A stretch of DNA of 64,000 bases from a virus (IMGVR_UViG_2721755711_000002), one strand, 5' to 3'; shown: positions 44,605 to 48,047, counted from the first letter of the stretch. Notes: generated from the sequence alone by a model not told the origin. A program made the numbers and translations.

Positions 44605-44988
44605 CTATCGCTTCAATTGAAAATGTGGGCCGTCTTTAAGCGTCCGCCAGTCACCGCCCCATTCGATGGCAGTTCCAAGCTCTGCGGCAGCTTGCTTAAA
44701 TGCCTGTGCGATTTTCTCGTACAGAGGCCAGTCCCATGACACCTGGCTGCCAACATAAGCCACAACATCCACAGCATCACCGGTCAGGTGGCGGCTGTTC
44801 ATGGTCTGGCTCTTACCTTCTGCAACCAGCTGTTTCTGGCGATACTTACTGCGCAGACCTTCCGTAATACCGAAATCAACCTCCGTCAGCTCCAGCGCAC
44901 GGCGAACAACAGCAACCAGCTGTGGTTTGACGCCCTCCAGATTTTTTTCACTGCGACGACTGAATCTGAATTTACCCGACATGCTCAC
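44605..44988 (-). CDS. endolysin, peptidase M15 family (L-alanyl-D-glutamate peptidase type)
   Basis: HLTGDAVDV..WGGDW..DGPHFQL motifs typical of M15 endolysins. Confidence 0.75.
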   Translation of the reverse strand: MSMSGKFRFSRRSEKNLEGVKPQLVAVVRRALELTEVDFGITEGLRSKYRQKQLVAEGKSQTMNSRHLTGDAVDVVAYVGSQVSWDWPLYEKIAQAFKQAAAELGTAIEWGGDWRTLKDGPHFQLKR

Positions 44989-45260
44989 CTCCGGAATGAA
45001 AGGATTTTTGAAACGTTCCCGCGTGCACGTATCACCAGCACGCAGAACAGCAGATTAAGCCCCACCGCCAGCCAGTTCGCCGCTAACGGGCGACCGCACA
45101 GATAGCTGAGTGGTGCAAAGGCATAAAGCAGCATCAGTAGCCAGGCCAGCCATGACATCAGCGCTTTATGTCTGGAATCACGGCGACGATAAAAAAAGAG
45201 CGTCAGCACGATAACCGTGCTTAACACCACATTCAGTAATCCGGGAAGGTTACTTAACAT
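44985..45260 (-). CDS. holin-like membrane protein
   Basis: 91 aa with three hydrophobic segments, between holin and endolysin. Confidence 0.55.
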   Translation of the reverse strand: MLSNLPGLLNVVLSTVIVLTLFFYRRRDSRHKALMSWLAWLLMLLYAFAPLSYLCGRPLAANWLAVGLNLLFCVLVIRARGNVSKILSFRR

Positions 45261-45639
45261 TACCGCCTCCTCCCCGCAGACGGGAGAACAGCCCGAATAC
45301 CAGCGATGCGATATCCTGCTGGTGGATGAATGAGAGAATCTTCACCGACACCACCGATACCAGTACCGCGCAAAGCGCGTCGAGAGATGTGCTGTGGAGA
45401 TTCAGTTTTTCAACCAGGTAAGACGCCATCACATCCGCCCCCAGCACGCCAACAATGAACGACACCAGAAAATGCGCTGCCACACGCCAGACAGAAATCT
45501 TCTGTGGTATCGTGGCCACAAACAGCGCCCCTGCGAATGCACCAAACACAATCCCGAAATCCGTTCCGGTAAACAGCCCGAATACCGTCGCCCCACCGAG
45601 CGCCGCAGCCGTGCCGGAACCGGATAAGGGTTCAGACAT
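45250..45639 (-). CDS. holin-like membrane protein
   Basis: about 130 aa from MSEPLSG after AGGAGA RBS; Gly/Ala-rich TM segments. Confidence 0.55.
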   Translation of the reverse strand: MSEPLSGSGTAAALGGATVFGLFTGTDFGIVFGAFAGALFVATIPQKISVWRVAAHFLVSFIVGVLGADVMASYLVEKLNLHSTSLDALCAVLVSVVSVKILSFIHQQDIASLVFGLFSRLRGGGGNVK

Positions 45640-45650
45640 ACTTTTTCTCC

Positions 45651-45680
45651 TGTAAATAAAAAAGGGCCGCTGTCGGCCCG
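45651..45680 (-). terminator. intrinsic terminator abutting holin RBS (tR'-like)
   Basis: minus strand GGGCCG-ACAG-CGGCCC followed by TTTTTTATTT. Confidence 0.6.
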
Positions 45681-45732
45681 TAAAAAAACCCCCCGTCAAA
45701 GGCACCCACAGATGCCTTTTGTGTGGTGCTAT

Positions 45733-45939: not shown

Positions 45940-46620
45940 ATGTACTCCCTGAAAATTAGATGCCCGTACTGCCTTCATCAGGTTCATATTTCTCTGAATG
46001 AGGTCACCCAGTACCACAGCAGGCGCCCGGCTACAGAAAACAAGCTTTACGTGCAACAGCCGCGCACCTCTGAAATAACATCAGCAAAAGCATACTCAAC
46101 AGACTTTTGCACAGAATGTAACAACCCATTAATGATCGCATTCGAATGTTCAGTCAGTGAACTGGTGGACATGAAAAAAGCCATCAACAACAAAGCCTGG
46201 GTGCTGAATGCTCCACTTGAGGGAAGCATCAAAATCTATCCTGAACTCAGGCTGCCCGATGACTCCCCCCACTATCCCGAAAAAATTCGCGCAGTCTTCA
46301 CCGAGTTGCAAGAGGATGTTCGGTCCGGCAGAACCGCCCCGCGTATCATTGTTGGCTGCCGTAGCGTCCTCGAGGTTGCCCTCCGTGCCCTGGGGTACGA
46401 AAAAGGCAATCTGCTGTCACGCATTGAACTGGCACGGCAGGACGGCATACTGACGGAATCAATGAGAAACTGGGCTCACCGAATCCGTATGGAAGGCAAT
46501 GAGGCTGTGCACGAGCTCGAGGCCAGTGGTGAACAGGCAAAAGAGTTTGTGGCGTTTCTCCGCCTGTTCCTTGAAGTGGCATTTGTGCTACCGGAACGCA
46601 TTAAGGAACAGCAGCAATAA
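45940..46620 (+). CDS. Cys-pair / HEPN-like (DUF4145-type) protein, candidate defence effector
   Basis: C-terminal ..MRNWAHRIRMEGNEAVHELE.. fits R-x-x-x-G-N-x-A-V-H signature recalled for DUF4145; CPYC and CTEC pairs; start could be 46132 or 46171. Confidence 0.45.
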   Translation: MYSLKIRCPYCLHQVHISLNEVTQYHSRRPATENKLYVQQPRTSEITSAKAYSTDFCTECNNPLMIAFECSVSELVDMKKAINNKAWVLNAPLEGSIKIYPELRLPDDSPHYPEKIRAVFTELQEDVRSGRTAPRIIVGCRSVLEVALRALGYEKGNLLSRIELARQDGILTESMRNWAHRIRMEGNEAVHELEASGEQAKEFVAFLRLFLEVAFVLPERIKEQQQ

Positions 46621-46627
46621 AAATGCA

Positions 46628-46646
46628 GCGGGCTTTCAATGCCCGC
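46628..46646. terminator. bidirectional terminator between convergent genes
   Basis: GCGGGC-TTTCAAT-GCCCGC between stop at 46620 and minus-strand ORF end. Confidence 0.5.
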
Positions 46647-46654
46647 TCAAATAA

Positions 46655-46813
46655 TCAGCTGTTGTTTTTGTTCCGGAATAAAGGCCGGAGCACGACCAGC
46701 GCCATCGCCACCAGTACACCATCAGCCAGTACCGACATCAGCCGTCCGGTGAAATCCACCGCCACTACCAGAAACAGCAGGACGGCAGCCAGCGCAAGGC
46801 GTGCACTTTTCAC
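46655..46813 (-). CDS. small membrane peptide (52 aa, GTG start overlapping TerB stop)
   Basis: VKSARLALAAVLLFLVVAVDFTGRLMSVLADGVLVAMALVVLRPLF; hydrophobic; read by hand. Confidence 0.3.
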   Translation of the reverse strand: MKSARLALAAVLLFLVVAVDFTGRLMSVLADGVLVAMALVVLRPLFRNKNNS

Positions 46814-47235
46814 AGGTACTGCTCCAGCGGTAACTGCAGCGCCTGAGCAATTTTCTTGAGCTGTGCTTCTTCATCCGGACCAATGCCATCCTGGTCTGCG
46901 ATATCCAGACACAGGCACAGCACATTAACGGCATCATCAGTACCGGCGACATCAGCCAGTTGACGGAGGGCTTCAGCATTGGCAGAACGCGGCGATGCTT
47001 CATAACGGGCGCGGATATTCGCGCTCATCTGGGCAATCTCACCGGAGAACGGCGCAAAGGCAGGAAGTGCTGCAATGGTTTTCTCCAGTACCGCAATTTC
47101 TTTCGCGTCACAGGTGTCGTCAGCGTATGCAATGGAATACGCGCCCCAGACGGTCGCCTCCACCGCGTCGCGGTTCTCCATTTTCTTCACTTCAGTAATA
47201 GCCTTACGGGTTTTCTTTTTGAAAATACCAAACAT
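46810..47235 (-). CDS. TerB-domain protein
   Basis: MFGIFKKK start after AGGA RBS; C-terminal VLCLCLDIADQDGIGPDEEAQLKKIAQAL typical of TerB-like fold. Confidence 0.55.
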   Translation of the reverse strand: MFGIFKKKTRKAITEVKKMENRDAVEATVWGAYSIAYADDTCDAKEIAVLEKTIAALPAFAPFSGEIAQMSANIRARYEASPRSANAEALRQLADVAGTDDAVNVLCLCLDIADQDGIGPDEEAQLKKIAQALQLPLEQYL

Positions 47236-47432
47236 CGTGACTTTTCCTTTTAGTGGGTGAGCCTCGCCCCGGGATGAGCAGCCCACAGAGAAAGTCACAC
47301 TGACCATCCCGTAAGCTCCCCCCTGAAAGGCTCTGTGGTTTTTTGATGTGCGCCGGGCGTGGCGCAGATATGAAAAAGGCCACGCACGTGCGCAGCCTGA
47401 TAATTTTCTGAATCAGCGGAGTGTCAGCTGGT

Positions 47433-47924
47433 TTACCCTTTCACTTCTGAAAGGGATTTTTTGCCAAACGTCACTTCATTCATTGACATAAGTATGCTGT
47501 CTTTAATGTATTCGCACACTTCATTAATTTTTGCGTTGGTATCCACATGCGAAAATGTCCTGGCCTGATAACCATCAACCGAAATCGTCATGTTGTCGCC
47601 ATCAAGTAACAGAATACTCACTGTAATATTCACACTTACAGACTGGCGGGGATCATCATCAACAACCGTATATAAATTAAAAGTAACCCCATCCTGAAAA
47701 TCTACCTGCAAATCCTCCGGTTTCTCACAACAACTATCATGAGAAAGATAAACATAGGGATGGGAGTTACCGTCAATATCCAGCCATCGTGGTTTCGGCA
47801 ATGCCAGTGAGTCTTCATAGGTCTTGACCAGCCTTTTTGCCATATCCCGCAGTCGCTGGATGTACTCCTGTCTGGCCTCCTGAATTTCAGCCTGCTTTGC
47901 CCGAATGTCTGCATATGTGATCAC
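47433..47924 (-). CDS. hypothetical protein (164 aa), AT-rich cargo gene
   Basis: GTG start at 47924 with GGAGA RBS; N-terminal helix then beta-rich region; no family recognised. Confidence 0.45.
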   Translation of the reverse strand: MITYADIRAKQAEIQEARQEYIQRLRDMAKRLVKTYEDSLALPKPRWLDIDGNSHPYVYLSHDSCCEKPEDLQVDFQDGVTFNLYTVVDDDPRQSVSVNITVSILLLDGDNMTISVDGYQARTFSHVDTNAKINEVCEYIKDSILMSMNEVTFGKKSLSEVKG

Positions 47925-48020
47925 AGTCTCAATTCTCCTGTATACAGAAAAATAAAACATAATAATAGCCAACCGGGAAAAGATGAAAAATGCCATAACA
48001 GAACAGGCATTGCGCACGGA

Positions 48021-48047
48021 TAAAAAAATGCCCGTCATGAGACGGGC
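48021..48047 (-). terminator. intrinsic terminator downstream of tRNA gene
   Basis: minus strand GCCCGTC-TCAT-GACGGGC followed by TTTTTTTA. Confidence 0.55.

Follow-up and report, generated by a model that had tools for sequence, protein, structure and literature searches.

The locus examined here raises the question of whether a very short hydrophobic reading frame overlapping the end of a TerB-family gene in a viral genome is a gene in its own right and, if so, what the two products might do together. The window is a 64,000-nt viral stretch (IMGVR_UViG_2721755711_000002), and all positions given for it are counted from its first letter. The first-pass annotation of this DNA had described a 141-aa TerB-like protein, a strongly hydrophobic 52-aa peptide joined to it by a GTGA overlap, and convergence of the pair on a HEPN-like gene. 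All three observations were borne out: both ORFs and their coordinates were verified, the larger protein scores above the Pfam TerB cut-off, the peptide has a GRAVY value of 1.14, and the converging gene, which encodes a DUF4145 protein, lies on the plus strand with a terminator between the two stop codons. The features of the locus are collected in table 1, in which the pair is called tciA and tciB on the basis of the homology set out below.

Table 1. Features of the tciAB cassette and of the surrounding region in the window
Feature	Position	Strand	Remarks
M15 endolysin	44605-44988	minus	after the holin-family genes
Two holin-family genes	45250-45705, 44985-45260	minus	beyond the DUF4145 insertion
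DUF4145 gene	45940-46620	plus	converges on tciB; end at 46620
Shared hairpin terminator (tciB and DUF4145)	46627-46647	.	3' border of the cassette; terminator scan and direct reading
tciB (DUF3927 membrane peptide)	46655-46813	minus	GTG 46813, TGA 46655-46657; 52 codons
tciA (TerB family)	46810-47235	minus	ATG 47235, TGA 46810-46812; 141 codons, 141 aa; cytoplasmic
Structured tciA leader, ~130 nt	47236-47367	minus	non-coding; conservation and covariation
Shine-Dalgarno AAAGG	47250-47246	minus	leader element
G-tract, variable	47323-47318	minus	G6 in the window; 5' strand of helix H4
Anti-SD CCUUU, invariant	47330-47326	minus	leader element
Helix P2	47338-47331 : 47290-47283	minus	leader element
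Hairpin H1	47365-47350	minus	leader element
GC-rich hairpin and U-run	47377-47398	minus	intrinsic terminator of the upstream unit; terminator scan
PHROG 5091 ORF	47433-47923	minus	~163 aa, GTG start; no assigned function
Promoter-like site (TTTTCA-16-TATTAT) and further terminator	47962-47989, 48030-48047	minus	belong to the PHROG 5091 unit
tRNA-Gly	48328-48400	minus	between methyltransferase and PHROG 5091 ORF
DNA methyltransferase	48619-49665	minus	late region, lambdoid prophage

Along the minus strand, as read from the window and from annotated E. coli homologues, the genes follow in the order methyltransferase, tRNA-Gly, PHROG 5091 ORF, tciA, tciB, (DUF4145 on the opposite strand), two holins, and endolysin, and the cassette lies in the late region of a lambdoid prophage. 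On its 5' side the cassette is bordered by the terminator of the upstream unit; the stem of this terminator varies in sequence among relatives, but all of them have a hairpin and T-run directly ahead of the leader. At the 3' border, 8 nt past the tciB stop codon, begin a hairpin and T-run that serve both tciB and the converging DUF4145 gene. The tciA start codon is directly preceded by AAAAGGAAAAG, and the GTGA tetranucleotide, read from the window sequence, forms a 4-nt overlap between the tciA stop and the tciB start. A longer, 165-aa TerB reading from an ATG at 47307 was rejected because relatives have indels in this part that are not multiples of three, so that the frame is not kept among them. 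Among the ORFs that follow tciB in the window there is no third, tciC-like ORF; the terminator comes instead. The PHROG 5091 ORF, with its own promoter-like site and its own terminator (47398-47377), appears as a separate small unit that most relatives lack. Elsewhere in the window Rfam identifies a sok antitoxin RNA at 54159-54333 on the minus strand (113.5 bits), indicating a hok/sok-type type I toxin-antitoxin locus within the same prophage, and annotated E. coli relatives have hokD at the corresponding position.

TciA matches the Pfam TerB model (PF05099) with a modest score and partial coverage of the profile (29.0 bits, cut-off 24.4, E 1.4e-6) and matches PHROG 632, labeled 'tellurite resistance', over its full length (E 5e-64). 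This label on phage genes reflects homology only and is not to be taken as marking a resistance determinant. TciB matches DUF3927 in Pfam (PF13064; 51.9 bits, cut-off 25, E 7e-14, profile positions 4-49 of 53) and PHROG 1470, 'TciB-like' (E 1.5e-24), and neither protein matched an NCBIfam model. A DNA search related the locus to tciA of phage P1 with 82% nucleotide identity (85% for the protein), and in P1 the genes tciA, tciB (54 aa), and tciC (35 aa) overlap each other. Judged by sequence similarity, the window pair is thus a homologue of phage P1 tciA-tciB in a lambdoid-prophage copy.

Both genes are called by PGAP in E. coli genomes, and a protein identical to the 52-aa peptide is present in 183 public contigs under the name 'DUF3927 family protein [Escherichia coli]'. 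The pair is therefore already catalogued, and the earlier expectation that the peptide would be easy to miss does not hold for PGAP, which routinely annotates it. Lobocka et al. in 2004 reportedly gave the names tciA-tciB-tciC in their annotation of P1. A CRISPRi screen scored tciABC of P1 as non-essential, about half of a P1-like subgroup has lost the tci operon, and reviews list the tci genes under their homology-based name alone. Within the literature that we searched we found no functional experiment on tciA-tciB, and DUF3927 is mentioned by one paper, in a figure legend only.

The AF2 model of TciA is a six-helix bundle (pLDDT 75.6), whose best fold match in the PDB is 2h5n (PG1108), which we take to be a TerB-family structure; the match has a probability of 1.0, with a TM score of only 0.53-0.56 and an E value of 0.02, and a sequence-profile search of the PDB with TciA matched no TerB structure. 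TerB proteins carry two acidic motifs of the D-G-x5-E type, reportedly proposed by Anantharaman et al. in 2012 to bind metal. TciA has both (D39-(G/D)40...E46 and D116-G117...E122), and D39, E46, D111, D114, and G117 are invariant among 16 homologues. Its N-terminal tail, MFGxFKKKxRK, has M1, G3, K8, R10, and K11 invariant among close homologues; residues 1-19 are conserved, yet AF2 predicts them to be disordered (pLDDT below 50). TciB is a small protein predicted to reside in the inner membrane. It has hydrophobic stretches at residues 6-19 and 25-42 separated by an invariant DFTG motif, an invariant D31-G32 within the second stretch, and basic residues at both termini, and the invariant core of the DUF3927 family reads LLFLVV-V-DFTG-LMS-L-DGVLV...PL. 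By the positive-inside rule basic ends are expected to be cytoplasmic, and the positive charge at both ends suggests a hairpin with both termini inside. At odds with this reading, AF2 predicts a single continuous helix over residues 2-49 (pLDDT 88).

The co-occurrence of TerB genes with small transmembrane ORFs, which the first-pass annotation had put forward as a check on its proposal of a two-component module, was determined on a set of loci comprising 17 from one-genome-per-species contigs, 160 from IMG/VR, and several from GenBank phages. An intact TerB 3' end was present in 178 related loci, and 174 of these possess a hydrophobic ORF of 46-55 aa with its start 4 nt or 1 nt inside the stop codon of TerB; the overlap is GTGA in 150 loci, TGATG or TAATG in 23, and TTG in one. 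The four exceptions are lesions: one locus is rearranged, one has a nonsense mutation in tciA, and two share the same 1-nt frameshift. The peptide of two diverged loci (L016 and L018) falls below HMM detection, yet it retains its hydrophobic character, a length of about 50 aa, and the overlap. This arrangement is far beyond chance, and the coupled pair stands as a conserved two-gene module. Four apparent natural TerB::DUF3927 fusions (P0172, P0253, P0268, and P0272) appear to be products of frameshifts or of chimeric assembly and were not accepted as Rosetta-stone evidence. The DUF3927 family itself is small, with 95 clusters at 50% identity among 1.84 billion representatives.

Pairwise Nei-Gojobori estimates of dN/dS, for which synonymous sites are near saturation, are about 0.28 for tciB and about 0.05 for tciA, and both genes are under purifying selection. 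We conclude that tciB is a real gene and an obligate follower of the TerB gene. Because its translation is coupled to that of tciA, TciA and TciB would be made together. Such strict coupling would also ensure that TciB is never produced without TciA, as expected if a toxic TciB were neutralized by TciA in an addiction or selfish element; peptides of about 50 hydrophobic residues are typical membrane toxins, and the cassette is highly mobile among phage backbones. However, the conservation of TciA is far above that of typical antitoxins, and frameshifted tciB copies and the deletion scars described below exist without signs of compensating loss. In addition, the invariant polar motif of TciB (VDFT...DG) together with its dN/dS of 0.28 suggests a specific interaction rather than generic membrane damage. 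We therefore consider a toxin-antidote pair to be very improbable.

Of 5,426 complete E. coli genomes, 380 have relatives of the pair, which also occur on more than 400 IMG/VR contigs, in 91 GenBank phage records, and on 673 PLSDB plasmids, 657 of which are non-mobilizable; most of the plasmids listed measure about 90-115 kb, as do P1-like and SSU5/pKpn-like phage-plasmids from E. coli and Klebsiella. In lambdoid prophages the commonest order on one strand is methyltransferase, tciA, tciB, holin, holin, and endolysin. The strictly virulent N4-like Salmonella phages FSL SP-076 and SP-058 encode a TerB immediately followed by a DUF3927 gene in their early region, N4-like phage Pollock also carries TciA, and the virulent Pseudomonas phage ZY21 has a TerB and a DUF3927-like ORF. 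The virulent Erwinia jumbo phage Caitlin encodes a TerB, a TciB-like ORF and, directly after these, a TAXI-family solute-binding protein with a signal peptide (Pfam NMT1_3; L302, Caitlin 1201-2710). The peptide ORF, whose loss from related prophages would have counted against the first-pass proposal, is thus kept in prophages, phage-plasmids, and virulent phages alike. Clustering of the flanking ORFs of 16 loci gave no third conserved protein partner: holins follow in 7 lambdoid loci, and in P1-like elements the flanking genes are ban and dmt.

Comparison of these loci revealed that the TerB component is exchangeable. A second TerB subfamily, which we refer to as TciA2, has a length of 142-143 aa, is 41% identical to TciA, and matches the Pfam TerB model over its full length (E 4.8e-16); its copies have the same leader upstream and the same kind of overlapping DUF3927 ORF downstream. 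Likewise, the TciB proteins of SP-076 and SP-058 are near-identical, but the TerB of the former shares 66% identity with the window TciA and that of the latter 34%. The DUF3927 peptide is therefore constant, and the TerB is swapped between subfamilies that are 34-41% identical. All of these phage TerBs share the fold, the two acidic DG...E motifs, and a tail of the MFGxFKKKxRK type. The N4-like Vibrio phage BUCT194 (L305, 1-1877) encodes TerB, TerC, and TerB in a row (TerC-family match, E 3e-41) and no DUF3927 peptide, and so puts TerC where enterobacterial phages have TciB. Both the swapping of TerB against a constant peptide and this substitution are new to the present study, as are the carriage by virulent phages and, described below, the structured leader and the link to TAXI proteins.

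An interaction between TerB and TerC has been reported (PMC11003894). From this interaction, the constancy of TciB beside swapped TerBs, and the substitution by TerC, we infer that TciB is the membrane partner of TerB. The reading that we prefer, and hold tentatively as somewhat short of probable, is that TciB is a membrane tether or partner of cytoplasmic TciA in a minimal analogue of TerB-TerC that acts in the lytic phase and conditions membrane or ion homeostasis in the infected cell. TciB would anchor or partner the TerB-fold TciA at the inner membrane, the disordered basic-hydrophobic tail of TciA being a candidate docking element and its paired conserved acidic motifs a candidate metal-binding element. 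The module would be transcribed with lytic-phase genes, in the window by late-operon read-through just upstream of the holins, and translation of tciA would probably be gated by a leader able to sequester the Shine-Dalgarno sequence. In an infected or induced cell the module might condition ion or energy homeostasis at the inner membrane, and the phenotypes expected would be ter-like, for example tolerance of pore-forming insults and the exclusion of other phages. We propose the lytic timing because the cassette occupies a late-operon site without a conserved promoter of its own (no conserved sigma-70 promoter was found inside the cassette), because in phage P1 the pair is located downstream of the C1-repressed ban promoter, and because some carriers are virulent. 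Given the virulent N4-like and jumbo carriers, the pair most likely acts in lytic growth, and a defence confined to lysogens is unlikely.

The lambdoid gene order, which places the pair directly before the holins and endolysin on the same strand, could also point to a role in lysis timing, with TciAB modulating holin triggering as an antiholin-like factor or a stabilizer of the proton motive force that prevents early lysis, and TciB, being small with two hydrophobic segments and a charged C-terminus, superficially resembles class II holins. However, the pair lies away from the lysis genes in phage P1 and in the N4-like and jumbo phages, TciB matches PHROG 1470 and no holin family, and the window already has two holin-family genes. 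We consider such a lysis-timing accessory improbable.

The first-pass annotation had noted that TerB domains occur in several membrane-associated stress and anti-phage systems. That general statement is correct, as the ter operon and the Shango, Bunzi, and Dionysus systems illustrate. Bacteriophage T4 Imm brings about superinfection exclusion by blocking DNA entry, and a dedicated module might work along similar lines if TerB sensed the membrane perturbation caused by an incoming phage and the peptide blocked DNA entry or depolarized the cell. TerB domains are present in the validated systems Shango, Bunzi, and Dionysus, the last of which pairs TerB with transmembrane and pore-forming proteins, and phage inhibition as well as resistance to colicins is reported for the ter cluster of plasmid R478. 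The pair also lies in a moron hot-spot of the prophage beside a candidate defence gene, the DUF4145 gene, and virulent phages encode exclusion proteins too, so that carriage by N4-like phages is compatible with exclusion. Against this, PADLOC models match neither TciA nor TciB even at E<=1, and the helicase/ATPase partners of Shango and the DinA and DinC partners of Dionysus are absent. Moreover, the pair belongs to lytic-phase operons and has no conserved promoter of its own, which makes expression in a resting lysogen doubtful, and an abortive-infection suicide module would be odd in virulent jumbo and N4-like phages. A dedicated anti-phage role in the lysogen is weakened accordingly, with superinfection exclusion as the form in which it may yet hold, and as a dedicated function we regard it as unlikely.

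The DUF4145 gene had been suggested as a possible partner of the pair, a suggestion that its distribution contradicts: of 80 close viral loci only 3 have it next to the pair, and of 380 E. coli genomes only 4. It seems to have been inserted independently between tciB and the holin gene and, being present in few relatives, is probably a defence-type moron in its own right. Its product probably has 226 aa from the ATG at 45940 with a zinc-ribbon-like N-terminal CxxC...CxxC segment, and in RefSeq relatives only the C-terminal 149-162 aa are annotated. The protein matches PHROG 1305 and has a weak PADLOC match to PD-T7-4 (E 6e-4).

Returning to the proposed TciA-TciB membrane module, we found that the sequence between the preceding terminator and the tciA ATG is itself conserved. 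This leader of about 130 nt is alignable in 87 of 114 distinct upstream regions, with an identity of 62-76%, variable terminator included, as compared with 45-55% at third codon positions of TciA in the diverged group, and it is non-coding because indels disrupt every reading frame. A single copy of the 17-mer CCACAGAGCCTTTCAGG is present in the window, and at least 120 viral contigs carry it. Its matches include 83 upstream of tciA, 18 full leaders upstream of other ORFs, mostly TciA2 (two of these TciA2 copies being truncated), and 15 partial copies, some of which resemble deletion scars, with the leader's 5' half abutting the tciB terminator. Two IMG/VR sequences (L220 and L224), in which the 5' half of the leader is fused to sequence normally found after tciB, look like precise deletions of tciAB, and such deletions fit a cassette gained and lost as a unit. 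On another IMG/VR lambdoid contig (L291) the leader precedes a gene for a TAXI-like periplasmic binding protein instead of TerB, and a hydrophobic ORF of 51 aa comes next. The leader is lacking in about a quarter of tciA contexts, phage P1 among them, and is therefore not required for function.

Two sets of helices were evaluated on 24 distinct leaders. In these sequences, which represent few clades and are the same ones from which the helices were drawn, Set I (H1, anti-SD:SD, H4, H5, and H3, with P2 crossing) has 92% of cells paired against 42-48% when slid, with 11 pairs showing compensatory changes, and Set II (helix P1, P2, and H3) has 96% paired against 36-58%. For both sets none of 500 shuffles attained the observed covariation score. 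The anti-SD:SD helix (CCUUU:AAAGG) is 100% paired and includes one compensatory change from C-G to U-A. H5 is the least secure helix because alignment-free comparison of cognate and non-cognate duplexes gave -6.7 versus -5.8 kcal/mol. Helix P1 excludes H1 and part of H5, so Sets I and II would be alternative conformers, and for a common leader variant RNAfold gives -52.7 kcal/mol with the Shine-Dalgarno sequence free and -52.4 kcal/mol with it sequestered. The leader has no match in Rfam, either at gathering thresholds or at E<=10, and the prophage sRNAs PasA and PasC, considered as candidates, were rejected since they sit between the nanS-p esterase gene and the holin gene. We conclude that the leader is a conserved structured RNA supported by covariation and apparently undescribed.

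The length of the G-run in the leader ranges from 4 to 11 G between relatives that are near-identical otherwise; this run may be prone to slippage, which could affect expression. A more speculative proposal, and one that we doubt, is that the leader represents a new class of translational riboregulator, riboswitch-like or phase-variable through the G-tract, that gates an interchangeable module of either a TerB or a TAXI protein, each with a small membrane peptide, the TerB-TciB pair being a minimal Ter unit. If this were true, TerB-TciB might for example form a small cation-conducting or cation-sensing membrane complex regulated by TerB. A leader that sensed a signal could reveal what the module responds to.

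Among known RNA elements, the leader resembles riboswitch platforms and the fourU and ROSE thermometers in that its pyrimidine stretch CCUUU can pair with the Shine-Dalgarno sequence, and like other riboregulators that sequester this sequence it has two mutually exclusive sets of helices. It differs from known RNA thermometers in being larger and more complex and in belonging to no Rfam family.

Among known gene sets, the closest is tciABC of phage P1. Both loci have a DUF3927 peptide overlapping the end of a closely similar TciA (by GTGA in the window and TGATG in P1) and both have tRNA genes and a DNA methyltransferase upstream; the P1 copy is accessory. However, the window has a terminator in place of tciC, its copy lies beside the holins of a lambdoid late region whereas the P1 copy lies in the ban operon, and the structured leader is found in the window and not in P1. 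Shango (SngABC), Bunzi, and Dionysus (DinABC), for which their authors proposed a role in 'membrane surveillance', resemble the pair in combining a TerB-like domain with membrane-associated components. In contrast to these systems, tciAB is phage-borne, including in virulent phages, and lacks both the helicase and ATPase genes of Shango and the MAEBL and four-TM pore genes of Dionysus.

The ter clusters (terZABCDEF), described in the 1990s, likewise have a gene for a TerB-fold protein immediately upstream of one for a membrane protein. TciB, with its 52 aa, has no detectable similarity to the multi-pass TerC of about 340 aa, and none of the genes for TerA, TerC, TerD, TerE, and TerZ is present among the neighbors in the window or in the annotated homologous regions. 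With TerB domains now found in several anti-phage systems, a module of one TerB and one 52-residue partner that recurs across lambdoid prophages, P1-like and other phage-plasmids, and N4-like and jumbo phages could offer, in its two-gene phage version, a far simpler experimental handle on TerB than do the ter operon with its seven genes and the defence systems with their three.
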